This document shows positions 1 to 64,000 of a stretch of 64,000 bases of DNA, piece by piece. Location: positions 83,198 through 147,197 of the forward strand of contig CAZCAO010000001.1 of NCBI GenBank assembly GCA_964496815.1, in the 5' to 3' direction. The translations under genes and the position numbers were made by a program. This DNA is from an uncultured Candidatus Saccharibacteria bacterium. Lineage in GTDB: Bacteria > Patescibacteriota > Saccharimonadia > CAILAD01 > JADZBC01. The first letter of the stretch is position 1. The number at the start of each line of letters is the position of its first letter. The notes beneath the pieces were generated by a model that was not told the origin of the DNA, made no database searches, and was given only the letters and a program-made list of their open reading frames with translations.

Positions 1-1
1 C

Positions 2-15880: not shown

Positions 15881-15970
15881 GTCGCGCTAAAGAAGCATAA
15901 CTAGTTTGACAAGGCGGCAATCTAGACCCTATACTTATTACTAATAGTAAATAAACAAAGGGTGAGTAAT

Positions 15971-18148: not shown

Positions 18149-18174
18149 GATAACCCTTTAAAGGAGTAACAATT

Positions 18175-18513: not shown

Positions 18514-18543
18514 AGTCCGAATTTCTAGTATCGTCAAAAAACA

Positions 18544-18572
18544 TTGACAAAATACTTAATATGTAGTAAAGT
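18544..18572 (+). promoter_or_regulatory. orphan promoter TTGACA-17-TAAAGT
   Basis: TTGACA at 18544-18549, 17-nt spacer, TAAAGT at 18567-18572. No ORF lies between it and the hairpin at 18630-18713. Confidence 0.45.
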
Positions 18573-18629
18573 CTACTTGTTAACTATAACGTCTAGTTAT
18601 GGTTGGTATTTTGACGAGACTTATATCTC

Positions 18630-18713
18630 AAAAAAGCAGGAGGGTGCTTGACGGGCGGATTACTTCATAATGAATATTTCTACCCTAAAGCTGGCCCAAA
18701 CCTGCTTTTTTTT
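18630..18713. other. 84-nt nested hairpin element (A6GCAGG ... CCTGCT8)
   Basis: Outer 11-bp stem 18630-18640/18701-18711. Inner AGGGT/ACCCT stem 18641-45/18682-86. A-run on one side and T-run on the other, so it could act as a bidirectional terminator. Confidence 0.5.
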
Positions 18714-18928
18714 GTAGATCTACCTGGGTTCTGAGGTGGGATTCTGCATGCGTGATATCTGCCGCCCAGGTTGATCGTATGCAGGCTTCCACCCCAGACG
18801 AGGTGGACTACAGACAACCCTGGCGAACCGCCCAGGCCCTGTAGTGCCAAGACAACCAAGCATTCCTGCTTGGCCCTTGGTGCCCCGTCTGGGGCAACGA
18901 CAGCCCTGTGGGGCGGAAAGGGGCAATC

Positions 18929-19651
18929 ATGCCCATGACACCCGAAGAAAAGGCTGAGTTCGAACGTCAGCAAGCTGTGCAGAGCTGGCTGACGGACGAG
19001 CACGCTCGGACCCGCCGCGGCCTGACCGGCATCGGCCGTCGCACCGCCGGTCTGGAGCGCCACGCTGCTGCCACGGACACCACGCTCGCCGCCGTTCGCG
19101 ACGAGCAGACCGCTTCGGCGGCCTGGCGGGCGGATGTGACCGCCTGGCAGAGCGGTGTCGACGTCTGGGGGGCCGATGCGGACGCCCGCATCACCCTGGC
19201 CCAGGAGACGGCCGACCTGGCTGGCATTCGTGCCACCCAGGCCCGTGACATGGCTGCGCTCAGCATCAACGACGCGGCCCGCGCCAACCGGCGCATCACG
19301 GCGGCCACCAGCCCCGATGGCACCTGGCTGACCGGCCTCGTCACCGTGATCGGCTGGACGGCCTTGGTGCTGTTCGGTGCCTGGATGGCATCGGGGCTCG
19401 ACAACGGTCGGCGGCAGCTGGGGGACCACCCCAGCTTCCAGCCCATCGTGATCGGGGGCTGGCTCCTCGGACTGGTGTTGATCACGGTGATCACCATCGC
19501 GTCCGTGCTCAGCAGCAGCGACAACGACGTCGCTGCCCCGGCTCCGCAGCCGCAACCGGCTCCGCAGCCGCAACCGGCTCCGCAGCCGACGCCCGCCATG
19601 GGCACCCCGGCGGTCAACCCGCCCACGCCGGCACCGGCCGGCAACCGCTGA
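18929..19651 (+). CDS. GC-rich hypothetical membrane protein (helical N-terminus, 2 TM segments, PQ-repeat tail)
   Basis: ATG 18929 follows ggaaagggg. Third positions are nearly all G/C. TM segments are WLTGLVTVIGWTALVLFGAWMA and VIGGWLLGLVLITVITIASVL. Confidence 0.65.
   Translation: MPMTPEEKAEFERQQAVQSWLTDEHARTRRGLTGIGRRTAGLERHAAATDTTLAAVRDEQTASAAWRADVTAWQSGVDVWGADADARITLAQETADLAGIRATQARDMAALSINDAARANRRITAATSPDGTWLTGLVTVIGWTALVLFGAWMASGLDNGRRQLGDHPSFQPIVIGGWLLGLVLITVITIASVLSSSDNDVAAPAPQPQPAPQPQPAPQPTPAMGTPAVNPPTPAPAGNR
19538..19589 (+). repeat. 18-nt tandem repeat ccggctccgcagccgcaa, about 2.9 copies
   Basis: Copies at 19538-19555, 19556-19573 and a partial one at 19574-19589. Encodes APQPQP repeats. 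Confidence 0.85.
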
Positions 19652-19819
19652 GCGCGCAGCTCAGCAGAAGCTTCTTGGGCCGAGAGAGCGCCAGCTCTCT
19701 CGGCCTAGGGGCAACACAAGTACCTACACTTTGTGATAACTGCATTATCGTGAGCCCATAGGCCTCTCGCGATAAGTTGTTGTTCCAAAGGCCTCGAAGA
19801 CTCCTGAGAGGAGTTTGAC

Positions 19820-20809
19820 ATGAATGCATCGAGAAGGCTCCTCTTCGGGAGCTTGAGCGCGGTCTTCGCGATCGTGGGTGGGCTGCTGCTTCTGCTGCAG
19901 TTCACGTCGCCCGCCAAGGGTGACCCCACGCCCAACCCACCGTCTGCCGCGGAGTGCTTGCAGCAGTCGTTGCACACCTTCGCAGCCGACGCTGGCAAGA
20001 CCGCTCCGGACAACTACGGACCTCCCGTCGGTGGACCGAATCGGATCGACCTGGTGGAGCCGCAGTTCGATGACACGAACTGCAAGGACATGCTGATCCT
20101 GCAGTCGTCGCGTTGGCACCTCGCTACCGCAACGGCGCCGCGCAATGCGGCAGAGATCAACAAGCATGCTTCCTGGGCCGCAAAGGATGCCAAGCTGAGG
20201 GCCGCGGACTACGCGGACTTCCGCAGTGCGGCGTTCGGTGATAGCACCGGCAGGGACATCGTGCAGGTTCCGAAGGGAACGACGTACTGGACGCTTGCGG
20301 CCAAGAACGTCGGCGGGACCTGGTCGGTCTACCAGACCCAGGTGACGCTCAGCCACACCGAGCCCATGCTGGAGGTCACGACCGCGAACGGAGCGAAGAA
20401 GCTCTTCAAGTTGTCGTGCCACTTCCAGCCGGTCTCGCCCGAGGAGTTCCCAGGGGTTCCGGTGGGGCCGCCTCCGGGCGGACCGAGTTCACCGCCTCCG
20501 AGCGGTGGCTACACGCCCCCTCCGGGTACGACGCCTACCACCCCACAGGGCGGCAAGGTGGACAACCATCCCGTCGGAAACCCCCTCCCGGGCGGCGCCG
20601 GTGGACCCCAGGCGGGGAACACCGACACCACTCCGGACACGGAGGACCCCGATGGCACCCATCACGGGTCCAGTGGGTCCACGGGGTGTCACGGTGGGTG
20701 CACGGGAGGAACCCCAACCACGACCCGGCCGGTTCCGCCGAGCACGGTCGAGACCACACCGGTGACGGTTCCGGCCCCCACGGCGTCCACCACGGTCCCC
20801 GGACCGTAG
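19820..20809 (+). CDS. GC-rich secreted hypothetical protein with Pro/Thr/Gly-rich C-terminus
   Basis: RBS gagaggag. Signal-like N-terminus MNASRRLLFGSLSAVFAIVGGLLLLLQFTSPAKG. Strong GC3 bias. Confidence 0.65.
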   Translation: MNASRRLLFGSLSAVFAIVGGLLLLLQFTSPAKGDPTPNPPSAAECLQQSLHTFAADAGKTAPDNYGPPVGGPNRIDLVEPQFDDTNCKDMLILQSSRWHLATATAPRNAAEINKHASWAAKDAKLRAADYADFRSAAFGDSTGRDIVQVPKGTTYWTLAAKNVGGTWSVYQTQVTLSHTEPMLEVTTANGAKKLFKLSCHFQPVSPEEFPGVPVGPPPGGPSSPPPSGGYTPPPGTTPTTPQGGKVDNHPVGNPLPGGAGGPQAGNTDTTPDTEDPDGTHHGSSGSTGCHGGCTGGTPTTTRPVPPSTVETTPVTVPAPTASTTVPGP

Positions 20810-20845
20810 GCCCAAGACCAAGCGCACTGGATGCGCTACACCCGA

Positions 20846-20870
20846 ACCCCCCTCCCTCGCGGAGGGGGGT
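20846..20870 (+). terminator. GC hairpin at the right edge of the GC-rich block
   Basis: accccccctcc-ctcgc-ggaggggggt forms a 10-bp stem. The U-run is weak (tcctcacgtt). Confidence 0.5.
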
Positions 20871-20991
20871 TCCTCACGTTATGGACATATATTCCAATAC
20901 ATTGTATAGCCGCATAAAAAGCTTAAGCTGTAAATGTATGGGTGATTATCACTATCGAATAAATCCAGGAGTAAAACATAAGCAAAAAGTG

Positions 20992-52442: not shown

Positions 52443-52517
52443 GGTCCCATCGTCTAGCGGTTAGGACGCCAGGTTCTCATCCTGGTAACCGGGGTTCGAT
52501 TCCCCGTGGGATCACCA
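52443..52517 (+). tRNA. tRNA-Glu (anticodon CTC), CCA encoded
   Basis: GGTCCCA-TC-GTCT-AGCGGTTA-GGAC..CCAGG-TTCTCAT-CCTGG..CGGGG-TTCGATT-CCCCG-TGGGATC-A-CCA. Confidence 0.93.
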
Positions 52518-52519
52518 AG

Positions 52520-52560
52520 CATAAGCATTATCAACGAAGACTCCGAAAGGGGTCTTTTGT
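52520..52560 (+). repeat. direct repeat DR-1 (41 nt) abutting tRNA-Glu, contains a terminator hairpin
   Basis: cataagcattatcaacgaagactccgaaaggggtcttttgt. Matches 54518-54560 with 1 mismatch and 1 indel. Confidence 0.9.
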
Positions 52561-52574
52561 GTTAGGATTGGGCT

Positions 52575-53045
52575 ATGTTTATATATACTTTTGCTAGCTT
52601 CCCGGACAAAGAAAGACTGCACGACATTTCCAAGGAAGTGTTTGTGTTCTCTAATCAGCTGCGTAGTGACATGGAAGAGCTTAAGCAGGGACTCATAGAG
52701 AAGGCTCCGGAGCATATCATTGGTATCGCAAAGTCTAGGGGAACGAGCAGATACGAACCCGTAGCTGTAAACAAGTTTCACCATGGGACTGTGATTAAAG
52801 GCGGGCCAGACGTTCTTCACCTGACTGTTCCCAACGAACGAGTGGGTGGCCTGGTTACTTCACGAAGGTCCTCACGAACGTTTTGCAACTGGACCGCGTA
52901 TCACGTGCAGACGTTTATATCCAGCGAGTTGCCCGACACAACATTCAGCTTCGTTCATCTTAACCCAAGAGACACAGGCGCTTTTGTGAGGAATATTTTG
53001 CAGCAGAAGTCCGGCTGGGAACATTGTGGTAATATCAATCCATGA
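52575..53045 (+). CDS. hypothetical protein, possibly pyroglutamyl-peptidase (C15)-like
   Basis: SRTFCNWTAY and FSFVHLNP resemble the Cys and His motifs of C15 peptidases. Short (156 aa), so the call is tentative. Confidence 0.4.
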   Translation: MFIYTFASFPDKERLHDISKEVFVFSNQLRSDMEELKQGLIEKAPEHIIGIAKSRGTSRYEPVAVNKFHHGTVIKGGPDVLHLTVPNERVGGLVTSRRSSRTFCNWTAYHVQTFISSELPDTTFSFVHLNPRDTGAFVRNILQQKSGWEHCGNINP

Positions 53046-53677
53046 AACTACTACTTACATCTGCCGGCATAAGGAACCAAGACTTAGCCAACGCACTAGC
53101 TGAATTGGTTGGAAGACCTGCTACAGAGACAAAAGTGGGGCTCATACCCACTGCAGAGAACGTAGAGCAGGGAAGCAAAGACTTCTTACTAAGTCAGTAC
53201 GATAGTCTTAGAAGCCATGGCTACAACTGGATAGACATCATTGACCCATCTGCAGAAGGGACCAACTGGAAAGGCAGGCTTGAGGCGGTAGACACTATTT
53301 TTGTTAGTGGAGGTAATACTTTTCACCTGCTTAACGAGGTTCGTAGAACTGGTTTTGGAGAATGGCTGAAGTGTAATATACAGTATAAGGTATACGTTGG
53401 GGTTAGCGCGGGCTCGATTATTGTTACTCCCAGCATTGCCGTTGCGTCCATCGACGACGGTGACGAGAACACAGTTGGCCTAACTGACTTAACTGGTCTT
53501 GGACTTGTTGATTTCGAGGTCTCGCCGCATTCGCCTGAATGGGTCAGCTACGAGGCAAATGAAGTGTATGCAAAAAGCATTACTAACAGGCTCCACCTAA
53601 TAGACGACGAAACGGGTCTCGTGATTGTCGATGCGTCTATTACGGTAGTCGGGCAGGGGAAGCACAAGGTTATCTAG
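53042..53677 (+). CDS. peptidase S51 (dipeptidase E family)
   Basis: GGNTFHLL and GVSAGSII (nucleophile Ser) motifs. Confidence 0.75.
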   Translation: MKLLLTSAGIRNQDLANALAELVGRPATETKVGLIPTAENVEQGSKDFLLSQYDSLRSHGYNWIDIIDPSAEGTNWKGRLEAVDTIFVSGGNTFHLLNEVRRTGFGEWLKCNIQYKVYVGVSAGSIIVTPSIAVASIDDGDENTVGLTDLTGLGLVDFEVSPHSPEWVSYEANEVYAKSITNRLHLIDDETGLVIVDASITVVGQGKHKVI

Positions 53678-53688
53678 CAAGCTTTGCC

Positions 53689-54420
53689 TTAGAGACTCTT
53701 TGCATATTCGTAAAACACATAGTCGTCTGCGTGTAACTGCTCAAACTTCTTGATAAACTCGTCGCTCAATTCAGGTAGTATCTCAGTATCGAAGTGGTTG
53801 AGAATGGGGGCATGCTTATCTTGAGTTATAAGGTCAGTTTTTCTCGCGAACGCAGACAGTTTCTCTGTAGTCCCTATCGCTTCGTATATAGAGGGGTCAG
53901 TACCCGTGGCTTGAGTCTGGTAATTAGCTAATGCTGGTAATAGAGCAAACTCCTCGAAAGTCATCTTCGCATCATAGGGCGGAGCGAATCGATGGCCCAC
54001 ATCCCCCTTGTGTCCCCTCCAATAGCGATAGTGGGACCACATTCTATCTAATGGCTCTCTGACAATCGTTCTATACTGGTGCTCAGCCACAGGTAAGTAT
54101 GGAATCATTTGAGCCGTCGCAACATGGCCGATGACTACTTTCATTTTCTTGAGGTCTTCAGGAGATATAGCTTGCTTTCGCCGCCGATTATTACGTCTCG
54201 TAACTAACATCCGCTTTATATTGGGTAGCCATGTCGTAATGGCTTTATATAGCTTTAACTGCCAGTTCTTTGTGTAATTGGCTGTGTGGATACTGTATGG
54301 AGCAAAGATTCCGTCTCTGATAAGAAAATGCGCCATATGAGAGCCGCCATACTTATCTTCATATAGCTTCTGCAGTGTGACCCCACCAGTCTTTTCAACG
54401 TGTATGTGTACTATTGTCAT
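53689..54420 (-). CDS. sulfotransferase-family protein
   Basis: N-terminal HIHVEKTGGVT (PAPS 5'-phosphosulfate loop type). Confidence 0.6.
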   Translation of the reverse strand: MTIVHIHVEKTGGVTLQKLYEDKYGGSHMAHFLIRDGIFAPYSIHTANYTKNWQLKLYKAITTWLPNIKRMLVTRRNNRRRKQAISPEDLKKMKVVIGHVATAQMIPYLPVAEHQYRTIVREPLDRMWSHYRYWRGHKGDVGHRFAPPYDAKMTFEEFALLPALANYQTQATGTDPSIYEAIGTTEKLSAFARKTDLITQDKHAPILNHFDTEILPELSDEFIKKFEQLHADDYVFYEYAKSL

Positions 54421-54517
54421 AGAAGCTCATTTTACCCCAAAGCCTATTTCTTGTCCCCACCAACTCATCATCTCGCTGAGCAGAGTGTTCCAATTCGATA
54501 TCGTATGGTTCATCAAT

Positions 54518-54560
54518 CATAAGCATTATCAACGAAGACTCCGAAAGGAGTCTTTTTGTA
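54518..54560 (+). repeat. direct repeat DR-2 (copy of 52520-52560)
   Basis: cataagcattatcaacgaagactccgaaaggagtctttttgt. Confidence 0.9.
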
Positions 54561-54624
54561 TTTCAGCTTTAAAATTTCTAGATTGGGGTATAATTGATCT
54601 GTCCTCGGTTCGTCTATCAAGGGA

Positions 54625-54846
54625 ATGAACATCGTGAGTCCAGGATTAGTTGCGGTCTATGTTCTGCTGGGGATAACGGCTGCGTGTCTCCTCGTCGCCC
54701 TCTTCACCTACAAGACCAACTTCTGGCGGGGATGGTTCAATCCATGGACTCATCGTCCGTGGTACAAGCTCGGGCTTCTCCCACTGGTTCCCGCCTTCTT
54801 TACCTTCCTCTACCACGTCAGCGGCCTCCAAGTCTGGCTCAAGTAG
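54625..54846 (+). CDS. small membrane protein (73 aa, 2 TM segments)
   Basis: Two hydrophobic helices. TATAAT about 35 nt upstream. Moderately GC-rich. Confidence 0.5.
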   Translation: MNIVSPGLVAVYVLLGITAACLLVALFTYKTNFWRGWFNPWTHRPWYKLGLLPLVPAFFTFLYHVSGLQVWLK

Positions 54847-54959
54847 GGGGCTCGAGGGAGCATTGGGCGATTGAGGCCGTCAAAAATGCGGAGGGGTGAA
54901 GTGGCAACAGGGCCCACCCCAGAGCGACTTGAGAAATATCTCGAGTCGCTTATTTCGTT

Positions 54960-55376
54960 CTAGAACTTGAAGAAGATGTATGGTTTACGCATAAACACAG
55001 TCCCATGATGTTCTTTGGGACTCGTCTTGATAAGGTGAGTGTGCTGATGGGGCACAGAGCGCATAGTACTGTTCACTCCTCGCGCATAGACGTTATAGCC
55101 CTTTGCTTCATACTCCGCGAATATCTTCATCAGGTCAGCAGCCTCATTAGCTGTTAGCTCCGAAAGCTTAAGGACATGACGTTTAGGCAGAACTAATAAG
55201 TGATCCTTCACATCACGAGCTTCCCATAAATCGTACGAGGTCTTGTTTGGTACAATGTAGGCGTGATCTGTCTCGATAAACTTACGTTTTTTCAGCTCTT
55301 CAACATTGCAGAACGGACACGAGGCAGGGCGAAGATGTTTTTTATACTCTTTGCGGGTCTTGGGGTAGTGGAACAT
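54960..55376 (-). CDS. HIT-family nucleotide hydrolase/transferase
   Basis: HQHTHL histidine-triad motif. ATG 55376 lies 6 nt after a TATAAT (55383-55388, minus strand). The ORF-track GTG 55391 overlaps that box. Confidence 0.75.
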   Translation of the reverse strand: MFHYPKTRKEYKKHLRPASCPFCNVEELKKRKFIETDHAYIVPNKTSYDLWEARDVKDHLLVLPKRHVLKLSELTANEAADLMKIFAEYEAKGYNVYARGVNSTMRSVPHQHTHLIKTSPKEHHGTVFMRKPYIFFKF

Positions 55377-55483
55377 AGGGCAATTATACACGAGTTTGCT
55401 GCTCAGCGTTGTGCTGATTGCTCTATCTCTTAGCGAGGTATTTCTTCGGTCATCATTTCTTAGTATTGTGATACTATCTATTC

Positions 55484-56512
55484 ATGCAAGACCCTACGCC
55501 ACGCCTGAATACCAGTTCCGAACAAAATGTCATTCCACTGGCGAACCAGGTAGAAATTCGCAATTCCTTAAGCGAACACGTTGAGTGTGTGATCGAGCCT
55601 GGCGTGACACGGTATTGGGACGAGTTTCGCGTTCATGCTGAGCCGCATACTATAGCAATAGACGGTTATGTCGAAGGGCCGATTCAGCGTGATTTGCAGC
55701 GCAAGGTTATAAATCTAAACCATCACGAACGAGTTGATCGTTCATCTACGCTTGCAACCTGTCAGCAGGCACTTTTTGAGATCCGTCGCGGCTTATTTGG
55801 CGCACTGCAGCAAGACGGTGAATTTAAGGCAAAAATATGCATGAATGATTGTGATGAAGATGTCTGCACCACAGTGTTCATCCTGCGGCACCCTGAATTC
55901 TCGGCCAAGATAGACAACCCAGCTTTGAACCGATTAGTCGAAATGGAAGGGATTATGGACGTAACCGGTGGGTTCTATCCATGGCCCCAGAGCTACCCAA
56001 GCCTGGCGGAATTCTTCTGGGTATACCAGCCATACCATGAGTTCCGTAATTCTGGCGGATTGAGCCGACAAAACCCAGACGAATATCAGGCGGTTATAGA
56101 CGCGGTGGGCGAACGAATTGAGCAGCATATTACCGGCCAAGGCGGGTCTATCGAGCTCGATACACGCTACACTAAGCTCGCGCAGCAAGGTATATGGACA
56201 ATGGTAGAAGAAACCGGTCAGCACGCAAAAGTCGGTATGTTATCAGATGGTATACAGGCATTTACGAGCGTAAGCGAACTACCGAATGGCCGATACAAAT
56301 ATAGCGTTGGCAGGCTCTCTCCCTACATTCCTTTTGACCTGAATAGCCTGTATGCTTACCTTAATGACCTCGAGGGCCTTACCGGCGAAGATTGCTGGGG
56401 TGGGGGAGACACCATTGGTGGCAGCCCACGCAATGCCGGTAGCTCTATTGCCCCGTCACAAATGGCAGAGATTGTGCAGCGTTTCATTACTCCGAATAGA
56501 CCCATGAACTAG
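55484..56512 (+). CDS. hypothetical protein (342 aa)
   Basis: Long ORF with backbone-like composition. No motif I can assign. Confidence 0.6.
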   Translation: MQDPTPRLNTSSEQNVIPLANQVEIRNSLSEHVECVIEPGVTRYWDEFRVHAEPHTIAIDGYVEGPIQRDLQRKVINLNHHERVDRSSTLATCQQALFEIRRGLFGALQQDGEFKAKICMNDCDEDVCTTVFILRHPEFSAKIDNPALNRLVEMEGIMDVTGGFYPWPQSYPSLAEFFWVYQPYHEFRNSGGLSRQNPDEYQAVIDAVGERIEQHITGQGGSIELDTRYTKLAQQGIWTMVEETGQHAKVGMLSDGIQAFTSVSELPNGRYKYSVGRLSPYIPFDLNSLYAYLNDLEGLTGEDCWGGGDTIGGSPRNAGSSIAPSQMAEIVQRFITPNRPMN

Positions 56513-56590
56513 CGATGTAGCAGTACTAGTCCGAAGTCATTGTTGTACCGACCCATATGAATGTGGGCGAGGTGAGGGCAAATTAAATAC

Positions 56591-56630
56591 AAACGAATCC
56601 CCTGGCGGAGATTCGCCAGGGGCATTACAT
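56591..56630 (+). repeat. hairpin repeat B-1
   Basis: aaacgaatcccctggcggagattcgccaggggcattacat. 37 nt identical to 57269-57305. 10-bp stem cccctggcga/tcgccagggg. Confidence 0.9.
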
Positions 56631-56667
56631 GCCTACCTATATATCGCCCCAATAGACCTATGATTGC

Positions 56668-56696
56668 TTGAATATCATACTTTTTTATGTTAATAT
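56668..56696 (+). promoter_or_regulatory. promoter TTGAAT-17-TAATAT driving the GC-rich ORF
   Basis: TTGAAT at 56668-56673, TAATAT at 56691-56696, 20 nt before ATG 56717. No SD sequence. Confidence 0.5.
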
Positions 56697-56716
56697 AATA
56701 CAGTTTAAAACCGACT

Positions 56717-57199
56717 ATGATTCTGGAAAGGATCATTTTGACCACAGCAACCACGGCGCCCCACAAGGCGCCTGAACTGTCCATCGACTACAACGCCCTC
56801 GCCCTTGGCCTGAGGGTCATCAGCTCCAGCATGAGCGCAAACAATAAGGCTGCGGCTTTTCGGATCATCACAGAGAACTTCCGAGATCAGACTTGGGGGA
56901 CTTACACGTCGGGCGTGGTCGACATCCTGCTGAAGATCCTCGCGATGATCGATTCCAACGGGGACCGGATGGTGCCTCATGCAGCGGCGCGATTCATCGT
57001 CGAAGGCATGCAGCGCAGCATGCTGGAGGTGTTGAGGGAGGCATTCGTAGCCTCCCAAGACGAGGGGCATCAGCGCAAGCTGGTCCCACATCCTGGCGTG
57101 TACGGACTCGAAGCCTTTCTGGCATGCGAACTCGGGTTCATCGTGGCGGATGCCACGTACCACTTCGACGACGAGCCTCTCGCAAGCCAGCCGGCCTAG
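56717..57199 (+). CDS. GC-rich hypothetical protein (160 aa)
   Basis: Strong GC3 bias from about codon 12 onward. The first ~36 nt have backbone-like composition. The antisense 168-aa ORF is judged spurious. Confidence 0.6.
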   Translation: MILERIILTTATTAPHKAPELSIDYNALALGLRVISSSMSANNKAAAFRIITENFRDQTWGTYTSGVVDILLKILAMIDSNGDRMVPHAAARFIVEGMQRSMLEVLREAFVASQDEGHQRKLVPHPGVYGLEAFLACELGFIVADATYHFDDEPLASQPA

Positions 57200-57231
57200 C
57201 CGGCACCACACCTCTTCGGGGGCGGGACATT

Positions 57232-57264
57232 AGCACCTGCCTGCGGGGAGGTGCTTTTGTTTTA
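57232..57264 (+). terminator. intrinsic terminator
   Basis: agcacct-(10 nt)-aggtgct followed by tttgtttt. Confidence 0.7.
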
Positions 57265-57268
57265 CAGA

Positions 57269-57308
57269 AAACGAATCCCCTGGCGGAGATTCGCCAGGGG
57301 CATTATAT
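57269..57308 (+). repeat. hairpin repeat B-2
   Basis: aaacgaatcccctggcggagattcgccaggggcattatat. Copy of 56591-56630. Confidence 0.9.
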
Positions 57309-57326
57309 ATGAACCCTTATATCAAC

Positions 57327-58019
57327 CTATCGAGCAGGAGCAGTACGGACTAGCTCCAGAATGACTGCAGCCGAAATTGCTGGATTGAGGCGGCTGAAGT
57401 TAGCTGTAGATCCGTAGTAGGTCGTGACTGCTCGCTCGGCAGCAGCTCGCTCCTTGGGGCTCGTCGTGAGCTTTCGCAGTTCGCCGATGAACTGATCGCG
57501 GTCAAAACGGATCTTGTCCATCTGATGCAAGTGGCCAGACAGAACCGCTACGAAAGCCTTGGCCTCTATAAAGCTGAAGCGCGGGAACGACGGGCAGCGT
57601 CGGAACAACAGCGCAACAGCACTCAACGCATCTGGCTGATCTTGCCAGGCCGCTTCGAGCTCATGCTGCCCCCATCCAGAGCTAACGGGCTGAATAACTG
57701 CCACGCCAGCGAGCCGAACCGGCTTCTTCTTGGCTTCAGACAACCTCGCGGCAGACCTGGAATACTCGGCTGCCTCTGTCTTGTCTGCCTGGTAGCGGCT
57801 GACCGCTCTGGCAGCGTCTCCATAGCTGTAATAGGGCACTCCTGGCCTCGAATCACCTGGCGGGTAGACTGCATCTACGCCGTACTTCCACATGACCTTG
57901 CGAACTTGCGTGGCTTTCTTGTGACCAAGCATCTCAGCAATCTGAGTAAGTGTTGCGAGCGGAGGCTCTTGCTGTGCAGCCCACTCACGGCGGGACTGTT
58001 CTACTGCATCTGCCGTCAT
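57327..58019 (-). CDS. hypothetical protein with N-terminal HTH-like segment
   Basis: ATG 58019 follows ggag. LATLTQIAEMLGHKKATQVRKV looks like a helix-turn-helix. Moderately GC-rich. Confidence 0.55.
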   Translation of the reverse strand: MTADAVEQSRREWAAQQEPPLATLTQIAEMLGHKKATQVRKVMWKYGVDAVYPPGDSRPGVPYYSYGDAARAVSRYQADKTEAAEYSRSAARLSEAKKKPVRLAGVAVIQPVSSGWGQHELEAAWQDQPDALSAVALLFRRCPSFPRFSFIEAKAFVAVLSGHLHQMDKIRFDRDQFIGELRKLTTSPKERAAAERAVTTYYGSTANFSRLNPAISAAVILELVRTAPAR

Positions 58020-58134
58020 GACGGGCTCCAATATTGTCGGGTACAAGTAGTTTGAGTATATCGCTTCAGATATTTTACACAACCATAAGCTTTTATAATG
58101 GGTTATATTTCGCCGTGCCTGCTATACTAAGATC

Positions 58135-58440
58135 ATGAAGCGACGTGCGAATAGCGGAATCCTAGGAGGAATTATTTGGATCTTTGTAGCTAGTTCTGTA
58201 GCTACATTACTCCTGCGCTTCGCGTACGACCTCCATGGTCGCAGCCCAGAGGGCAAGCTCGCCACTATACTATATAGCTGGAGTAATGTATTACTCATAC
58301 CGGTAGGCTGGCTTGATCAGTACATTAGCTTGCCTAAGGCCCTGCCGAGCGGTTTTAATATCGTCATACCAATTGCTATTGGTCTGTACGTTCTGGTCGG
58401 CTGGGCGCTTTCTGCACTCATGCCTCATACGCACGATTAA
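58135..58440 (+). CDS. small membrane protein (101 aa)
   Basis: Three hydrophobic segments. TATACT (58123-58128) lies 6 nt before the ATG. Confidence 0.55.
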   Translation: MKRRANSGILGGIIWIFVASSVATLLLRFAYDLHGRSPEGKLATILYSWSNVLLIPVGWLDQYISLPKALPSGFNIVIPIAIGLYVLVGWALSALMPHTHD

Positions 58441-58485
58441 GCTATTATCAACAGAAGAACCCCCGACCTAAGCCGGGGGCCTCTG

Positions 58486-59058
58486 TCAGGGGTGTGGACC
58501 CTCTCTTTTAGCTGTTTGGTAGCGACTATGAGCATCTTGGATTTCGGTGGTGCACTCGGTAACCGCACGCTCACTGTTGCGCAGCATACGACGACAGATC
58601 AGCGTGTGCACCATGTCAATAACAATTACTAGCAGTGCAGCCAGGAACATACTGGCGACAACAACAGGCTTCATGCCATTGATGGCGCCGACAAAGCCGC
58701 AAAACACCACCACAAGCCAGATGGCCAAGCACATAGCACGAACCCGATAGATGCGTCTAGTGCACCGCACGTATGTGCTGAGTAGGTTACGCTGAGCCCT
58801 TTCGAGCGCTACGCAACCTGCCTGGACCTCCATTACGGCATTGCGTTGTGTTTGTGCCCACGCTACATGTTCAGCTGGCTCCGGGCTAGCTTGCCAAAGA
58901 GCCGACTTAAGCAAATAAGCGTTTAAGTCCGCAACGATATCATTCGCGATATCCAGCATATAACGGGTATTATCGAGCTGACTGGCATAGTGCAACTCAG
59001 CCTCAAGCTGGTCATCCGCTACCCAGAATCGAGGCAGCCTAGTCTTGCACTTAAGCAT
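58486..59058 (-). CDS. hypothetical membrane protein (190 aa)
   Basis: Soluble helical N-terminal half, then two TM segments (AIWLVVVFCGFVGAI and VVVASMFLAALLVIVI). Confidence 0.55.
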   Translation of the reverse strand: MLKCKTRLPRFWVADDQLEAELHYASQLDNTRYMLDIANDIVADLNAYLLKSALWQASPEPAEHVAWAQTQRNAVMEVQAGCVALERAQRNLLSTYVRCTRRIYRVRAMCLAIWLVVVFCGFVGAINGMKPVVVASMFLAALLVIVIDMVHTLICRRMLRNSERAVTECTTEIQDAHSRYQTAKREGPHP

Positions 59059-59127
59059 ACTGCCTCCTAGAGCAATAGTAGGTACGAAGTAAGCAGACTA
59101 TAAACTAAATACACGTAAATTACAAGG

Positions 59128-59619
59128 TTAAGTACATTTGCGTCGGGGGATAAAACGTGGCGTATTGAGCTTATAACGTGCGTAGCGAGATCCGAAGGCA
59201 GCCTCGAGCATCCGTTCTTCGCGGGCAGACTTAAATATAAACAGAGCGACGAGTGAGCCGTAGAGCGTTGCGCGAGCAATACTCGGGCGAATAATCAGTG
59301 TGCCGAGCCCCCAGAGCATAATGCCGCTATAAACCGGATGCCTTACGCGCTTGTAAAGCCCCCGTGTCAACAGCTTTGCGCCTTTGATCGGCTCGGGTAG
59401 GGCAGAGAGCGAATAGCTTCGGAGTTGCCAGAGTGCAAGCGACACCACGCCAACGCCGACAACCCTCATCATATTAGCTAGCAAAATCTGCGCCCCGCCA
59501 TCACGCCGGCCAGGGTAGTACAAGACCGCTACCATCAACACGATTTGCAAACCGATAAGTATGTAGCTGAATGTAGTCGGCTGGAGGCCGCGCCGCCCGC
59601 TGCTTTTATGCCGTTTCAT
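59128..59619 (-). CDS. isoprenylcysteine carboxyl / phospholipid methyltransferase-family membrane protein
   Basis: RHPVYSGIMLW motif and C-terminal EERMLEAAFGSRYARY. ATG 59619 lies 7 nt after TATACT. The longer ORF-track N-terminus runs through repeat C-1. Confidence 0.7.
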   Translation of the reverse strand: MKRHKSSGRRGLQPTTFSYILIGLQIVLMVAVLYYPGRRDGGAQILLANMMRVVGVGVVSLALWQLRSYSLSALPEPIKGAKLLTRGLYKRVRHPVYSGIMLWGLGTLIIRPSIARATLYGSLVALFIFKSAREERMLEAAFGSRYARYKLNTPRFIPRRKCT

Positions 59620-59650
59620 AGCCCTAAGTATAACGCTTGTGTTTAATAAA

Positions 59651-59711
59651 ATCGAGGGTACGAAAAGAGCCCCGAGAAGAGCGTTGGGGCTCTTTTCGGG
59701 GCTTGGTTGCC
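59651..59711 (+). repeat. hairpin repeat C-1
   Basis: gggtacgaaaagagccccgagaagagcgttggggctcttttcggggcttggttgcc. 54/56 identical to C-2. Stem cgaaaagagcccc/ggggctcttttcg. Confidence 0.92.
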
Positions 59712-59731
59712 CACTTGTGCTGCCGGGATGG

Positions 59732-60418
59732 CTAGCTGCGTGCTGTGTCGATGCGGAACTCGTCCACCACCACGCGCTTGCTGAACCCGGGGTCACCTGG
59801 GTATTGCACCATCACGTCGTAGACGAAGGTCAGCTTGTTGCCTTCCACCCCCTCCTCACGAAGAGCGTGTTCAGTCAGTCGCTTTTCCTTGATCTCCGAT
59901 TCTCCCCAGCTCTGTGTCTGGTAACCCCAACCGTCGATCAGGGTCTTGCTGAACCCCTCGATAGAGAAGACCTCGTCGTAGATCCGACCGTTGGTCGCCA
60001 GAAAGCCTGGCTGGTTGCCCGAATGCAGGCTGTCGTCCATCGAGTCCTGGAGGAGTCCATCGAGCCCCTGCTTGCTTCCCAGCAGCGAGATGTCAACATG
60101 GACATGTTCGATGTAAGCCACCAGGCCTTCGCCGCCCACGGTGGGCACCACGCGCGCCTGGAAGCGAATCGTCTTCGGCTTGGTGATCCGCCACGACTTG
60201 GTGTCGTAGTCGGTCGTGTAGGTCGTGACGAACTTGTACTTCTCACCAGGAACGACAGTCTCCCTGCGCAGTGCGCCTTCGCTGAGGTCGTTGCGCAAGC
60301 GCTCGAGCTTGGTGTCTGCCGGCGTAGTAGCCGATTGCTCCGAACCGGAACAGGCCACAAGGCCCAGCAAGAGCCCGGCCAAGATCAAGAGCCCGGCAAT
60401 GCGTCGCTTGGTAATCAA
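59732..60418 (-). CDS. GC-rich lipoprotein, function unknown
   Basis: Lipobox LVAC-SG after ITKRRIAGLLILAGLLLG. Strong GC3 bias. The start is TTG 60418 or ATG 60457; ATG 60457 lies only 3 nt from the -10 box. Confidence 0.7.
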   Translation of the reverse strand: MITKRRIAGLLILAGLLLGLVACSGSEQSATTPADTKLERLRNDLSEGALRRETVVPGEKYKFVTTYTTDYDTKSWRITKPKTIRFQARVVPTVGGEGLVAYIEHVHVDISLLGSKQGLDGLLQDSMDDSLHSGNQPGFLATNGRIYDEVFSIEGFSKTLIDGWGYQTQSWGESEIKEKRLTEHALREEGVEGNKLTFVYDVMVQYPGDPGFSKRVVVDEFRIDTARS

Positions 60419-60460
60419 ATTCCCATTCCTTCGTGTAGGTGCCAGAAACTGAACCATACT

Positions 60461-60489
60461 ACTATAATGAAAAAAGTATAATATGTCAA
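60461..60489 (-). promoter_or_regulatory. promoter TTGACA-17-TATAGT (minus strand)
   Basis: Plus-strand tgtcaa at 60484-60489 and actata at 60461-60466. Drives the GC-rich lipoprotein gene. Confidence 0.5.
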
Positions 60490-60505
60490 TACTAGTAATG
60501 AGAGT

Positions 60506-60564
60506 ATCGGGTACAAAAAGAGCCCCGAGAAGAGCGTTGGGGCTCTTTTCGGGGCTTGATTGCC
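60506..60564 (+). repeat. hairpin repeat C-2
   Basis: atcgggtacaaaaagagccccgagaagagcgttggggctcttttcggggcttgattgcc. Confidence 0.92.
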
Positions 60565-60571
60565 TCCAGCC

Positions 60572-60673
60572 CTACAGGCGTGCTCGGAGCACGCCTACGA
60601 GGACCAAGATGGTGACGACCACGAGGGCCGTCGCCAAGATGTTTAGGGTCCTCTCGGACAGCCGGATAGGCAC
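60572..60673 (-). CDS. 33-aa hydrophobic peptide (second gene of the pair)
   Basis: GTG start 6 nt after AGGAGG. Sequence (M)PIRLSERTLNILATALVVVTILVLVGVLRARL. GC3-rich. The stop is embedded in the hairpin aggcgtgct/agcacgcct. Confidence 0.5.
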   Translation of the reverse strand: MPIRLSERTLNILATALVVVTILVLVGVLRARL

Positions 60674-60687
60674 CTTTGACCTCCTGG

Positions 60688-60789
60688 TCACTTGAGCATC
60701 TTCGCGAAGAAGACGACGTTGGCGACGACGATCGCCGCATGGGCCACTCCCATCGAGTGGGAGTGGATGAACATGTTGATGCGTTGCAT
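60688..60789 (-). CDS. 33-aa hydrophobic His-containing peptide (first gene of the pair)
   Basis: ATG follows aaaaaaggggg. Sequence MQRINMFIHSHSMGVAHAAIVVANVVFFAKMLK. GC3-rich. 14-nt gap to the next start. Confidence 0.5.
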   Translation of the reverse strand: MQRINMFIHSHSMGVAHAAIVVANVVFFAKMLK

Positions 60790-60941
60790 GCGCACCCCCT
60801 TTTTTCGTATCTATGCGATCAGGTAGAGTGTCGACTGTGGTAACGAGGATGTGATCGGAATCCCGATCGTACACACTCTATACCTTAGTCATCACAAGCT
60901 GCCGTCCTGCACATGACGTACTGTCCAAAACGAACCTGAAC

Positions 60942-60970
60942 ATATTAACATAAAGCATAAGCTTTGTCAA
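60942..60970 (-). promoter_or_regulatory. promoter TTGACA-17-TAATAT (minus strand)
   Basis: Plus-strand tgtcaa at 60965-60970 and atatta at 60942-60947. Followed by a ~145-nt leader before ATG 60789. Confidence 0.5.
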
Positions 60971-60988
60971 TGCTCAGCGAACAGCGAC

Positions 60989-61375
60989 TTAAGCTTTGAT
61001 ATCAATGAGTTCAATGTCGAAAACCAGATCAGAATTTGGGGGAATGTTATGACTGGGGGAGCTAGTACCGTAGGCCTGAGCAGCAGGAATAATTAGCCGG
61101 CGAGTACCACCAATCTTCATGCCGGGTACGCCTTCGGTCCAACCGGCTATTACTTGGTGTAGGCCAAACGTGGCAGGATTACCAAAGTCATGGGAACTCT
61201 GAAAAATCGTGCCGTCTTTGGCCAATGCCCCGGTATAGTGAGCGGTTATTGTCGCACCCTTTGGCACTTCGGCGCCATTGCCAACCCGCAAGTCAATGCT
61301 TTCTAGCATGGCTACCTTAGCAACTGGAGTAAAGTCTTTTAGTTTTTTTCCTTCGAGCGGTTTTGATGTATTCAT
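60989..61375 (-). CDS. FKBP-type peptidyl-prolyl cis-trans isomerase
   Basis: ITAHYTGALAKDGTIFQSSHD and VIAGWTEGVPGMKIGGTRRLIIP motifs. TATAAT lies 6 nt upstream of the ATG. Confidence 0.88.
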   Translation of the reverse strand: MNTSKPLEGKKLKDFTPVAKVAMLESIDLRVGNGAEVPKGATITAHYTGALAKDGTIFQSSHDFGNPATFGLHQVIAGWTEGVPGMKIGGTRRLIIPAAQAYGTSSPSHNIPPNSDLVFDIELIDIKA

Positions 61376-61391
61376 AGAGTGATTATAGCAG

Positions 61392-61445
61392 AAACGAATG
61401 AGAGCCCCGAGGGGAGCAAGGGGCTCTCATTCGGGGCTCTTGGCA
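61392..61445 (+). repeat. hairpin repeat C-3 (diverged copy of C-1/C-2)
   Basis: aaacgaatgagagccccgaggggagcaaggggctctcattcggggctcttgg. 14-bp stem 61395-61408/61420-61433. Same gagccccgag..ggggctc..tcggggct skeleton. Confidence 0.8.
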
Positions 61446-61457
61446 GAACCTGCTGGA

Positions 61458-61997
61458 CTAGTCGATGACGACGAGGTCCACGTAGACGTAGCAGTTGCGG
61501 ATCTCGCCATCCGTCTTGCTGTGGACCAGACCACGCTCGCCGAGACCGGGATCGCAGTGCCGGCGGTCGAGCAGGTCGTGTGCCGTGCCGTTGCCGCGCT
61601 CCGAGAGGTGATCGTCGGGAGCGATGATGTCGAGCACTGGGTGGACCAGCTGCAGGTCCTTGTCGCCCAGGTGGTAGGTACCCCGAAAGATGACGCCGTC
61701 GAACAGGCCGAGCTCGAGGTGATCGAACGACTGGTTGCGGTTGGCGTACACGGCCGTGGCCCAGAAGTCGTCGACCAGCTCGGCGGTGGCCCGATCGCAG
61801 TTGGTCTCGCAGATGATCGCCTCGATGCACTGCTGAAGCGTCGGTGTGGGCAGGGTGCCTTCGCTGATCTCGTCGTCTTCTTCGATGGCGTCGATCTCGG
61901 CGATGATCGCAGGGTCAACGCTCGGGAAGGGTTCGGTGATGTCGGGGTACGTGTCGGTTGCCGGCGGGGTGCCGGTCCGGGACATGGTATCGGTCAT
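61458..61997 (-). CDS. GC-rich acidic hypothetical protein (179 aa)
   Basis: ATG 61997 follows ggaggtgg. Nearly all third positions are G/C in this frame. Three overlapping ORFs in other frames are Arg/Pro-rich and look spurious. Confidence 0.6.
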   Translation of the reverse strand: MTDTMSRTGTPPATDTYPDITEPFPSVDPAIIAEIDAIEEDDEISEGTLPTPTLQQCIEAIICETNCDRATAELVDDFWATAVYANRNQSFDHLELGLFDGVIFRGTYHLGDKDLQLVHPVLDIIAPDDHLSERGNGTAHDLLDRRHCDPGLGERGLVHSKTDGEIRNCYVYVDLVVID

Positions 61998-62047
61998 GGC
62001 CTCAGCCACCTCCGTGTTAGCCTGCATCGAATAGCAGGGTTGGGTTC

Positions 62048-62075
62048 AGTATACGCCCATAACCACTATGGTCAA
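62048..62075 (-). promoter_or_regulatory. promoter TTGACC-16-TATACT (minus strand)
   Basis: Plus-strand ggtcaa at 62070-62075 and agtata at 62048-62053. Drives the GC-rich acidic ORF. Confidence 0.45.
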
Positions 62076-62109
62076 GCCCTCTGATCAGCAGTAGGGTATA
62101 ATGGGTCTA

Positions 62110-63645
62110 ATGGCACAAATGATCATTTCTAAGTCCGAGTACATGATGTTTTTGAAACATCCTGCGTGGTTGTGGCTGAAAAAACACGATAAGTCCAAGC
62201 TCCCGCCGCCCGACGACAATTTACAGGCCATGTTTGATGCCGGCAATGCTTTTGAGGTGTATGCCGAACAACTGTTTTCAGATGGCGTGCGGCTTGGTTT
62301 TAATGATTATCAAGAATACCTTAGCCTGCCTGCAAGGACCGAAAAGGCCTTGGCCGACGGCGCCAAAACGATCTTCCAGGGTAGGTTTGAATACGGTCAA
62401 ATCACCTTTATATGTGATGTCTTACAAGTAGTAGGCGACAAGCTGGTTGACCTGACAGAAATTAAATCGAGTACCAAGGTAAAACCAGAACATGAATTAG
62501 ATTTGGCCTTTCAGGCCTATGTACTACAGCAATGCGGTTGGCAGGTTCGCAACGTCAGCGTAGTGCACGTTAATACCGACTATGTGCGCCAGGGCGAAAT
62601 TGACCCTGCCAAACTTACGGCAACCACCGACGTGACGCATGACGTAAAAATGCGTCTTGTGCAGACCGAGCGCGACATTAAGTCCGCCCTGCACGTTGTG
62701 GCCCAGCCTACCATGCCCGATCCGTCTCCAGCGCGCTGCCGTCTAGGTTGCCTACCCGAATGGATGGACATTTACCGTGGTCTGCGCACGGTAGAAAAGG
62801 GCAGTATCTATGAACTGACTCGGATTGACCCGAGCCTAATCGGGGTGCTCGAAGAAGAAGGTATCACGGAGCTCAAAAACATCCCACCAGATATCATCCA
62901 AAACGACAAACAAAAGATCCAGCTCGAAGTCGTGCGCAGCGGCAAGCCGATTATTCACAAAGACAAAATTCGAAACTTCCTGGATAGCCTAACCTACCCT
63001 CTATACTTTTTTGACTACGAAACACTCTCCAGCGTCGTGCCGTACTTCGATGGCATGCGGCCATACGCGCAGTATCCGTTCCAGTACTCCCTACACGTCA
63101 TTGATCAGCCAGGCGGAGAATTACGCCACAGTGGCTATTTGCACAGTGATAATTCCAATCCAGCAGAAGCTTTGAGTCGCACACTTACGTCACAAATCAG
63201 TACGACTGGGTCGGTACTAACCTGGTATATGCCGTTCGAAAAGTCCTGCAATACCACGCTCGGTGAGCTCGTGCCAGAATACGCCGAGTTCTACCAAGAG
63301 CTGAATAGTAGAATTATGGATCTTATGACGCCGTTTAGTAAAGGATGGTACGTCGATGCAGCCTTTGGCGGGAGTGCTAGCATTAAGAAGGTTATGCCCG
63401 CACTCATTCCAAGCCTTAGCTACAAGGAGCTCGACATTCAGGAGGGCGGCGCAGCCCAGCGACTGTGGATGGAATCAGTCCTAGATGGCAAGCACCAAGA
63501 GCAAAAGCAGGATATTTTGGCCAACCTCAATAAATACTGCGAGCTTGATACCCTGGCCATGGTGGAAATATACGATTTCCTGCAAAAGTTGGTGGCAGAA
63601 GACAGTATAGTTGGCAAACCCGTACAACTAGATTTGGACTGGTAA
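62110..63645 (+). CDS. DUF2779-like protein (PD-(D/E)xK nuclease-like N-terminus)
   Basis: ISKSEYMMFLKHPAWLWLKK N-terminus is typical of DUF2779 (from memory). TATAAT (62097-62102) overlaps ATG 62101, so ATG 62110 is favoured. Confidence 0.6.
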   Translation: MAQMIISKSEYMMFLKHPAWLWLKKHDKSKLPPPDDNLQAMFDAGNAFEVYAEQLFSDGVRLGFNDYQEYLSLPARTEKALADGAKTIFQGRFEYGQITFICDVLQVVGDKLVDLTEIKSSTKVKPEHELDLAFQAYVLQQCGWQVRNVSVVHVNTDYVRQGEIDPAKLTATTDVTHDVKMRLVQTERDIKSALHVVAQPTMPDPSPARCRLGCLPEWMDIYRGLRTVEKGSIYELTRIDPSLIGVLEEEGITELKNIPPDIIQNDKQKIQLEVVRSGKPIIHKDKIRNFLDSLTYPLYFFDYETLSSVVPYFDGMRPYAQYPFQYSLHVIDQPGGELRHSGYLHSDNSNPAEALSRTLTSQISTTGSVLTWYMPFEKSCNTTLGELVPEYAEFYQELNSRIMDLMTPFSKGWYVDAAFGGSASIKKVMPALIPSLSYKELDIQEGGAAQRLWMESVLDGKHQEQKQDILANLNKYCELDTLAMVEIYDFLQKLVAEDSIVGKPVQLDLDW

Positions 63646-63670
63646 AAGCAACCTCTGCTAGACTAGTGAT

Positions 63671-64000
63671 ATGAAGGTTATTATCGGAACAACGAGTAAG
63701 CTAAAAATCGAGACTGTAGCTCGGGCAATCAAGGGTATTGCGGGGGTTGATCCGAGTATTCGAGGCGAAGATGTAGCATCTGGCGTTCCCGACACACCTT
63801 GGGATGAACAAACCAAGCTAGGAGCTGTCAACCGAGCTCGAAGGATTTCAGAGACGCACGCAGATATATATGCGATTGGCCTCGAAAGCGGCTTAGTGAC
63901 TCGTTATGGGAACACGTATGAAGAGGCTTGGTGCTGTATTATTCATCAGGATACGGAGTATTTAGGCTACTCTAGTGGCCTCATGTTGCCTGCGATTGTA
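63671..64000 (+). CDS. inosine/xanthosine triphosphatase-like NTPase (YjjX/DUF84 family), partial at window end
   Basis: MKVIIGTTSKLKIETV...SGVPDTPWDEQTKLGAVNRA. Open to the window end. Confidence 0.55.
   Translation, partial: MKVIIGTTSKLKIETVARAIKGIAGVDPSIRGEDVASGVPDTPWDEQTKLGAVNRARRISETHADIYAIGLESGLVTRYGNTYEEAWCCIIHQDTEYLGYSSGLMLPAIV

Follow-up and report, generated by a model that had tools for sequence, protein, structure and literature searches.

A hypervariable island of short gene units beside tRNA-Glu in an uncultured Saccharibacteria lineage, probably turned over by homologous recombination

Results

The window analysed here is a stretch of 64,000 nucleotides (nt) covering positions 83,198-147,197 of the forward strand of contig CAZCAO010000001.1 (assembly GCA_964496815.1), which derives from an uncultured Candidatus Saccharibacteria bacterium (GTDB lineage Patescibacteriota; Saccharimonadia; CAILAD01; JADZBC01). 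Its backbone has a GC content of 0.45-0.50, with a GC content at third codon positions (GC3) of ~0.5, and carries ordinary housekeeping genes such as rpsB, frr, uppS, mreBCD, lysS, serS, secA and ribonucleotide reductase. Our subject is the island of 17 short open reading frame (ORF) units, on both strands, that lies between tRNA-Glu(CUC) and a DUF2779 gene beginning at 62101. A first-pass annotation made from the letters of the window had described short units in both orientations past tRNA-Glu, some of them far more GC-rich than the backbone, and this description holds, six of the units having GC3 values of 0.72-0.88.

The left border of the island is the tRNA-Glu gene itself (52443-52517, forward strand), which is recognized by both ARAGORN and Rfam, and the right-hand anchor is the DUF2779 gene (62101-63645, forward), the product of which has a Cas4-like nuclease domain. 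Reading from left to right, the overlapping genes u1 (156 amino acids (aa), no family) and u2 (peptidase S51) occupy 52575-53677 on the forward strand and are followed by u3 (53689-54420, reverse), which encodes a weakly sulfotransferase-like protein of 243 aa, and by u4 (54625-54846, forward), a 73-aa membrane peptide with a 13-bp bidirectional hairpin beyond it at 54922-54951. A HIT-family gene (54960-55376, reverse) separates these units from u6 (55484-56512, forward; 342 aa), the 160-aa orphan u7 (56717-57199, forward) and the 230-aa orphan u8 (57327-58019, reverse), which has a winged-helix-like N-terminus. Next come u9 (58135-58440, forward), a 101-aa membrane protein gene with a bidirectional hairpin at 58458-58481, then u10 (58486-59058, reverse), encoding a 190-aa membrane protein, and an ICMT/PEMT-family methyltransferase gene (59128-59619, reverse). 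The remaining units, all on the reverse strand, are u12 (59732-60457), a lipoprotein of 241 aa; u13a and u13b (60572-60789), two hydrophobic peptides of 33 aa each; an FKBP-type isomerase gene (60989-61375); and the orphan u15 (61458-62027), which has a likely start at 61997 giving 179 aa.

Elevated GC3 is seen in u4 (0.72), u7 (0.76), u12 (0.76), u13a (0.85), u13b (0.88) and u15 (0.87), with u8 being milder at 0.59; u1 to u3, u6 and u9 have normal GC. The GC-rich units follow the order GC3 > GC1 > GC2, as in real coding sequence from a high-GC source, and GC changes sharply, by 15-20 points, at unit borders. Apart from peptidase S51, HIT, ICMT/PEMT, FKBP and the weak sulfotransferase-like match, the ORFs of the island have no family in Pfam, PHROGs or PADLOC, and the latter two resources gave no defence or phage annotation beyond the Cas4-like domain of the DUF2779 protein. 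Profile searches against the PDB returned nothing significant, nor did the structure model of u8 (predicted local distance difference test (pLDDT) score of 71) have a significant PDB match; the model of u15 (pLDDT 49) was unusable. Residues ~150-172 of u15 contain the conserved motif LDRRHCDPGLGERGLVHSK, which is weakly like the GAGDQG region of S-adenosylmethionine (SAM) synthetases. Classification of u15 as SAM-synthetase-like was rejected, however, because its PDB profile matches, although confined to MAT enzymes, were not significant (E = 0.26-0.7), and neither Pfam nor hhalign gave support. Rfam detected no known RNA in the island besides the tRNA border, in window positions 550-1300, or in the GC-rich insert of a related genome that is described below.

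Sharp compositional steps of this kind might arise from chimeric assembly or contamination by high-GC DNA, which the first-pass annotation had named as the competing explanation. We regard this as effectively excluded. An exact-protein look-up of u7 led to three further assemblies that are 100% identical to the window over up to 9 kb (54936-64000) and that span every junction from 54.9 to 64 kb. These comprise scaffolds from BioSamples SAMN08389278 and SAMN08389277 together with one megahit contig, and so represent at least two BioSamples and two assemblers. Synteny across species is even stronger evidence: the same layout, with GC-rich ORFs in the same slots, is found in at least seven related lineages that were sampled in unrelated studies.

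When the ribonucleotide reductase of the window was used as the query, a single genome stood out as close, that of Patescibacteria MAG_140 (L004; 92% aa identity), and the matches ranking next, to 'Candidatus Saccharibacteria', were at 64%. Homologues of u15 and u8 led to further relatives, namely L089 (JGI, 429-kb contig), L171 (GCA_964436255.1), L174 (GCA_964413715.1), L175, L090, L177, L178 and L084. The island layout is common to L004, L089, L171, L174/L175, L090, L177 and L178, and tRNA-Glu is also the island border in L004, L089, L171 and L174. Five normal-GC genes, encoding the HIT protein, u9, ICMT, FKBP and the DUF2779 protein, act as a constant scaffold of anchors with 81-96% aa identity in L004, L089 and L171, the HIT protein being 96% identical to its relatives. 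Between these anchors the content of every slot differs from genome to genome, a variability that had been anticipated from the window and that the comparison of related genomes confirms. Thus, the tRNA|HIT, HIT|u7, u8|u9, u9|ICMT and ICMT|FKBP intervals contain different genes among the window, L004, L089, L171 and L174. Units u1 to u3, u4, u6, u10 and u12/u13 are specific to the window, with u1 and u2 missing from L004, L089, L171 and L174, and u12 from all syntenic relatives; the slot of u10 is occupied in relatives by a u15 paralogue and the family fam11. Conversely, GC-rich genes of the relatives that the window does not have include fam9 (a small membrane protein), a second u15-family paralogue and fam15. 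More distant Saccharibacteria, in which the DUF2779 protein is at most 64% identical, have no anchor synteny and mostly no GC-rich patches.

Some genes of the related loci are recorded here in their own right. The island of L090 has defence-like genes at 12708-15949 (a Schlafen-type helicase with MazG-like and NYN-domain genes), and that of L174 encodes a GC-rich HATPase_c_3 (MORC-like) protein at 1901-4347. In L089, the large subunit of ribonucleotide reductase is called as adjacent ORFs of 512 and 387 aa (17370-20073), for which a frameshift, misassembly or an interruption may account.

All three near-identical repeat families proposed at first pass are present. The D5 pair (50 nt, 92% identical) lies at 52509-52558 and 54507-54556; the D4 pair (55 nt, with an identical 37-nt core) at 56591-56645 and 57269-57323; and the D3 pair (56 nt, 96% identical) at 59656-59711 and 60509-60564, with a diverged third copy at ~61398-61445. 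On the forward strand, D5a takes in the final 9 nt of the tRNA and continues with an AAGCAT-AAGCAT box and a hairpin terminator; its reverse complement matches the promoter-box family described below, while D5b is fused to a degenerate copy of the tRNA 3' end (pseudo-att, ~54457-54515) in a composite element at 54457-54556. D4a (forward) is an extra copy of the hairpin and serves as the u6 terminator; D4b (forward), between the convergent genes u7 and u8, is ancestral, highly conserved in five genomes and the only D4 position occupied in relatives. On the reverse strand, D3a is a hairpin terminator in an ancestral position upstream of the ICMT promoter, with decayed orthologues in L004 (4670-4699) and L171 (7997-8021); D3b is its copy; and D3c is the terminator of u15, orthologous in all relatives and showing compensatory changes in the stem.

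These elements are stable hairpins with U-rich tails, having folding energies of -13 to -32 kcal/mol compared with -4 to -13 kcal/mol in shuffled sequences, and their types are confined to the island within the whole 64 kb. The first-pass view that most units have their own promoter and hairpin terminator stands in part. Terminator-like hairpins in the island are modestly enriched (16 vs 8.9 +/- 3.0 in shuffles), but generic promoter-like matches are not (9 vs 9.7 +/- 3.3), with the best of them located exactly upstream of u12, u15 and u13. These include a near-consensus promoter for u12 (60461-60489), a promoter box for u13 (60942-60972) and a promoter for u15 (62048-62075). Similarly, of the promoter-like sequence said to recur at unit boundaries, the 10-mer AAGCATAAGC is not significant (8 matches vs 5.8 expected), but the longer 22-nt box TTGACAA(A)TGCTTATGCTTATG occurs three times vs ~0.1 in shuffles and is also the promoter of the orthologous small transmembrane gene fam9 in four relatives. 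Different units do share promoter and terminator elements, as had been claimed. For ICMT, u12, FKBP and u9, a predicted -10 box stands 3-8 nt before the ATG (59620-59655, 60458-60489, 61376-61397 and 58105-58134, respectively), which suggests leaderless transcripts. The idea that the hairpins are DNA uptake sequences was rejected, the three families being unrelated in sequence and not over-represented outside the island.

Exchange between lineages is most directly visible in L004 and L171. Positions 1-4400 of L004 and 2766-7170 of L171 form a 4.4-kb tract of ~100% identity that spans the DUF2779 gene, u15, D3c and the first part of the FKBP gene, within which identity decays. Outside this tract the two genomes are 82-91% identical (~13% backbone difference), and their u8 alleles are unalignable at the DNA level. 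On these alignments, the tract indicates a very recent recombination event between lineages. The divergent L004 allele of u8 has the fam9 promoter box at one bound and a D4 hairpin at the other, and the intergenic linker bounding u8 is better conserved across five genomes than the ORFs on either side. Protein identities are also incongruent along the locus. The u15 protein of the window is 57-59% identical to those of L089 and L090 and only 27-33% to that of L004, its DUF2779 protein is 89-90% identical to those of L004 and L089 and 76% to that of L090, and L174 is the closest genome for ribonucleotide reductase (95%) and the most distant for ICMT (65%) and u9 (54%). Taken together, the identity tract, the bounds of the u8 allele and the incongruent identities of u8, u15 and the anchors argue for repeated homologous exchange between related lineages. 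The first-pass proposal that recombination takes place at the hairpins is not supported: some breakpoints do coincide with hairpins, but the one clearly recent tract ends inside FKBP, and the D3 site was rejected as its breakpoint for that reason.

A second pattern concerns the duplicated repeats. Relatives hold a single D4 (between u7 and u8), D3c after u15 and a D3a-type hairpin upstream of ICMT, the latter being decayed in L004 and L171, and L089 has a D5-like element after the tRNA region. Each extra copy in the window borders a lineage-specific insertion: D5a and D5b flank u1-u3, D4a follows u6, and D3b and D3a bracket u12, with u13 located between FKBP and D3b. A separate D3 pair encloses a 244-aa ORF in L090. 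The statement that repeats mark unit boundaries is correct for insertion borders, where every duplicated repeat is found, but not for GC breaks, given that u1-u3 and u6 are of normal GC. Hairpin copies within one genome are more alike than orthologues, and in L084 a terminator of another kind follows the u12 homologue, which implies that the hairpin is local and does not form part of the cargo. The D3 pair fits a single-crossover (Campbell-type) insertion of a circular cassette with a hairpin copy, whereas the D4 pair does not. Other possible routes are a template switch at the hairpins and homology-facilitated illegitimate recombination with later gene conversion. In L089 we also observed a GC-rich insert of ~520 nt (16405-16930) between two D5-type boxes, which has its own promoter box and no called ORF.

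Direct-oriented, near-identical hairpins around u12 (D3a/D3b) and the 244-aa ORF of L090, together with the stability and structural conservation of these hairpins, might also be explained if the hairpin-flanked units were non-autonomous elements moved in trans, either by IS200/IS605-type transposition, as for palindrome-associated transposable elements (PATEs), or by integron-like attC recombination. This seems very unlikely to us. Neither TnpA nor IntI is encoded in the window, the hairpins are restricted to the island rather than dispersed, they have no GTTRRRY-type cores, the units are found in either orientation with promoters of their own, and the terminator of the L084 u12 homologue shows that the hairpin does not travel with the gene.

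The tRNA-proximal end of the island has a different signature. In all relatives, the final 19-20 nt of the tRNA recur as a direct repeat (15-19 of 19-20 nt matching) ~190 nt downstream of tRNA-Glu. The order in these genomes is tRNA-Glu, terminator, ~130 nt and tRNA 3'-end repeat (L171 14250-14534; L004 9600-9830; L089 16880-17160; L174 12610-12854), the repeat being exact (19/19) in L171 and co-varying with the tRNA variant of each genome. In the window the tRNA part of the repeat is degenerate, and the 41 nt that come after it have a 39-nt core with 97% identity. In L084 the 100-nt pseudo-att/D5b element occurs complete once, in tandem with an incomplete second copy of its upstream portion. 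The tRNA 3'-end repeat could be an att scar, or else a small element or RNA with a tRNA-like 3' end, and the D5 pair looks like a classical att-site duplication at the tRNA 3' end. The possibility that viral contigs carry the D3, D4 or D5 boxes or the tRNA 3' end was rejected, since only chance matches and one unrelated low-GC phage fragment were obtained.

These scars raise the question of whether the island is instead the decayed product of integrase-driven accretion at tRNA-Glu, by tycheposon-like elements or mobilisable islets whose integrase is located elsewhere or has been lost. Scars of the same type occur in tycheposon islands (10.1101/2020.12.28.424599), the D5 pair begins inside the tRNA 3' end, L084 has its two tandem pseudo-att copies, and the same partial tRNA end is present on a phage contig. 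We consider this explanation improbable. Partial-tRNA repeats are tRNA-proximal only, with none at the D3 or D4 slots; conserved normal-GC anchors interleave with the variable units; and the exchange tract demonstrated above ends in an anchor gene. Moreover, no integrase or integrase fragment was found in the window or in the gene tables of seven related loci (8-20 kb each). Nor did any ORF of the island match an integrase, transposase, relaxase or phage family in Pfam, PHROGs or PADLOC, and the first-pass observation that the window contains no recombinase is upheld for the ORFs tested. For unassigned ORFs elsewhere in the window, Pfam found no family of these types, and precomputed Pfam lists for L089, L090, L171, L174 and L177 contain no recombinase. 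Ten island proteins have no PHROG match, and tblastn searches against phages match only u12 and u6.

For the origin of the GC-rich units, the first-pass annotation proposed a capture array without a recombinase, in which high-GC genes from an actinobacterial host had been taken up recently and repeatedly, at hairpin repeats, into expression-ready slots. Some of our observations accord with this, including the absence of a recombinase in cis, hairpin copies at insertion borders, promoter boxes common to different units, and u12/u13 and u4 being both window-specific and GC-rich. For u7, u8 and u15, however, it is largely refuted. These genes keep both their slots and a high GC content (GC3 0.59-0.92) throughout the syntenic relatives, in which u7 is 65-69% identical in aa sequence and the alleles of u8 and u15 are 35-74% and 27-59% identical, respectively. 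Backbone synonymous sites are saturated between the window and relatives (Nei-Gojobori synonymous divergence (dS) undefined or at least 1.9; third-position identity 0.40-0.50), and it follows that u7, u8 and u15 are not recent acquisitions. Judging from these comparisons, all three were present already in the common ancestor of the sampled relatives. In every lineage, u7 and u15 have GC3 values of 0.76-0.92 and an apparent dS of only 0.6-0.9, and their nonsynonymous divergence (dN) is 0.2-0.8 vs 0.03-0.19 for the anchors.

Homologue searches also provide no indication of a host donor. A search of 5.8 billion proteins gave four proteins homologous to u15 and five homologous to u8, and u7 has one orthologue cluster, in addition to two spurious repeat proteins, among 1.84 billion representatives. 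All u7, u8 and u15 homologues for which context was examined lie in the same island of the same clade, and these genes are therefore not detectably host-derived; the closest homologues of these GC-rich genes are thus of similar GC and from the same lineage, which the annotation itself had said would count against its proposal. No match other than for u12 was obtained by tblastn for ~25 GC-rich ORFs of the window and relatives against 50,697 phage and 72,556 plasmid records, and IMG/VR contained no relatives of GC-rich island ORFs. By contrast, the u12 family, the only GC-rich one with homologues outside the clade, has 31 homologues, all metagenomic, in contexts with GC contents between 29% (a genome) and 56% (a phage-like contig), as well as two phage records. 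In addition, two of the three repeat-bordered insertions have normal GC. An actinobacterial or host origin was rejected on these grounds (u7, u8 and u15 without homologues outside the clade, no plasmid matches, and phage matches only for u12 and u6), and the capture array as a whole appears distinctly unlikely. Separately, u6 has a single outside homologue, on the uncultured 485-kb phage genome LR745208.1 (39.5% identity over 329 aa).

Outside the island, a second GC-rich block (18716-20878; 67-68% GC) contains two orphan ORFs, encoding a membrane protein with a Pro-rich tail (18929-19651) and a secreted protein with GC3 0.81 (19820-20809); hairpins are present at its bounds, without repeats, and neither ORF has a Pfam, phage or plasmid match. 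At the left edge of the window (1-611 and 640-1180), GC-rich ORFs, e.g. 174-536, are followed by ~500 nt of apparently non-coding sequence (~60% GC), and a terminator-like hairpin closes this stretch upstream of rpsB. At 15962-18148, a 728-aa ORF with no Pfam family has Gly-rich tandem repeats (families D1 and D2; 144-nt period).

Discussion

The island is real and hypervariable, and we think it probable that it represents a clade-specific, multi-slot flexible island resembling a minimal mobile element (MME), with a tRNA att scar at one end and with turnover mainly by homologous recombination. Conserved normal-GC anchors alternate with slots, each slot being a compact unit of promoter, ORF and hairpin terminator, and the island would supply variable surface or membrane proteins together with small regulators. 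Turnover takes place in two ways. In the first, which the genome comparisons show, homologous recombination between related lineages, with crossovers in anchors or conserved intergenic linkers, swaps whole alleles or cassettes. In the second, a unit would be added beside a pre-existing terminator, which would thereby become duplicated on both sides; the pattern is observed, and the mechanism is what we infer. Addition at the D5 pair would be by att-site integration at the tRNA 3' end, the integrase being absent or acting in trans, and addition at the D3 pair by a Campbell-type single crossover with a circular cassette that has a copy of the hairpin. Natural competence has been shown for cultivated Saccharibacteria (PMC10633639), and Patescibacteria are known to have genomic islands (PMC12455944), which makes recombination-driven turnover plausible, albeit not proven, for this lineage.

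Several points weigh against this interpretation. Competence of this particular lineage is an assumption, and neither excision circles nor empty sites were seen. Because the window is 64 kb of a 160-kb contig, the genome could encode an integrase or a hairpin-specific transposase elsewhere. D4a is 678 bp from D4b, beyond the ancestral u7, so that a simple Campbell insertion at D4 does not fit. Island units are without family assignment or confident fold, and the source of the GC-rich DNA is unexplained, as is the persistence of GC3 values of 0.76-0.92 after saturating divergence.

A more speculative extension of the multi-slot island, to which we assign a low probability, is that it functions as an 'integron without an integrase'. 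The hairpins and the promoter box would then be portable homology sites, at which RecA-type recombination after transformation would add, excise or swap cassettes drawn from a hidden and persistently GC-rich pool peculiar to this epibiont clade, such as an unsampled plasmid or virus.

Gene gain and exchange in genome-reduced Patescibacteria are poorly understood, and few mobile elements are known in these organisms. The locus offers a concrete cross-genome case in which recent recombination tracts, slot turnover that is recombinase-free in cis, and repeated duplication of terminator hairpins can be seen together. It also poses a puzzle of amelioration, because in a genome of 48% GC the orphan genes hold GC3 values of 0.76-0.92, and do so across species with saturated synonymous sites, which points either to an unsampled GC-rich reservoir that re-seeds the same slots or to an unknown constraint on the genes. 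What is new here is a chained, multi-slot, MME-like island beside a tRNA gene and filled with clade-endemic GC-rich orphans.

Of the known systems, the closest likeness is to MMEs, whose definition (Saunders & Snyder 2002; Snyder et al. 2007), as quoted in PMC3082526, comes from naturally competent Neisseria. In the terms quoted there, conserved gene pairs enclose different whole-gene cassettes in different strains, as is seen in the island slots; mobility genes, of which none was found here, and terminal repeats of transposable elements are absent; and homologous recombination acts in the flanks, for which the evidence at this locus is comparative (the L004/L171 tract and the u8 allele swap). 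The island differs in chaining eight or nine slots within 10 kb and in having cassettes that each consist of one promoter-ORF-hairpin unit, in many cases a GC-rich orphan endemic to the clade. Moreover, its additions come with duplicated hairpins at three insertions, which classic MMEs do not have.

Tycheposon-built islands of Prochlorococcus (10.1101/2020.12.28.424599) resemble the present locus in adjoining a tRNA gene, in their partial-tRNA direct repeats and tandem scars, and in consisting of hypervariable small cargo units in a streamlined genome. Here, however, no integrase or integrase fragment was found in the loci searched, scars are confined to the tRNA-proximal end, and variable units are interleaved with anchors. 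Integron arrays share with the island serial ORFs that are each followed by an imperfect palindrome (u15-D3c, u13-D3b and u12-D3a, and the array in L090), but the island has no intI, attI or Pc, its D3, D4 and D5 elements are intrinsic terminators with U-tracts in place of attC or GTTRRRY cores, and its units have their own promoters and both orientations. The direct orientation of D3a and D3b around u12 recalls PATEs, which have sub-terminal hairpins on one strand at both ends, except that here the duplication takes in all 56 nt of the block and the site had its hairpin ancestrally; in addition, the window encodes no TnpA, and within the 64 kb the hairpin families are confined to the island. 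Finally, phage morons are likewise promoter-ORF-terminator units that are autonomous, have an atypical composition and are inserted among resident genes, but the island units have no prophage context and no PHROG match, and their neighbours are cellular genes.

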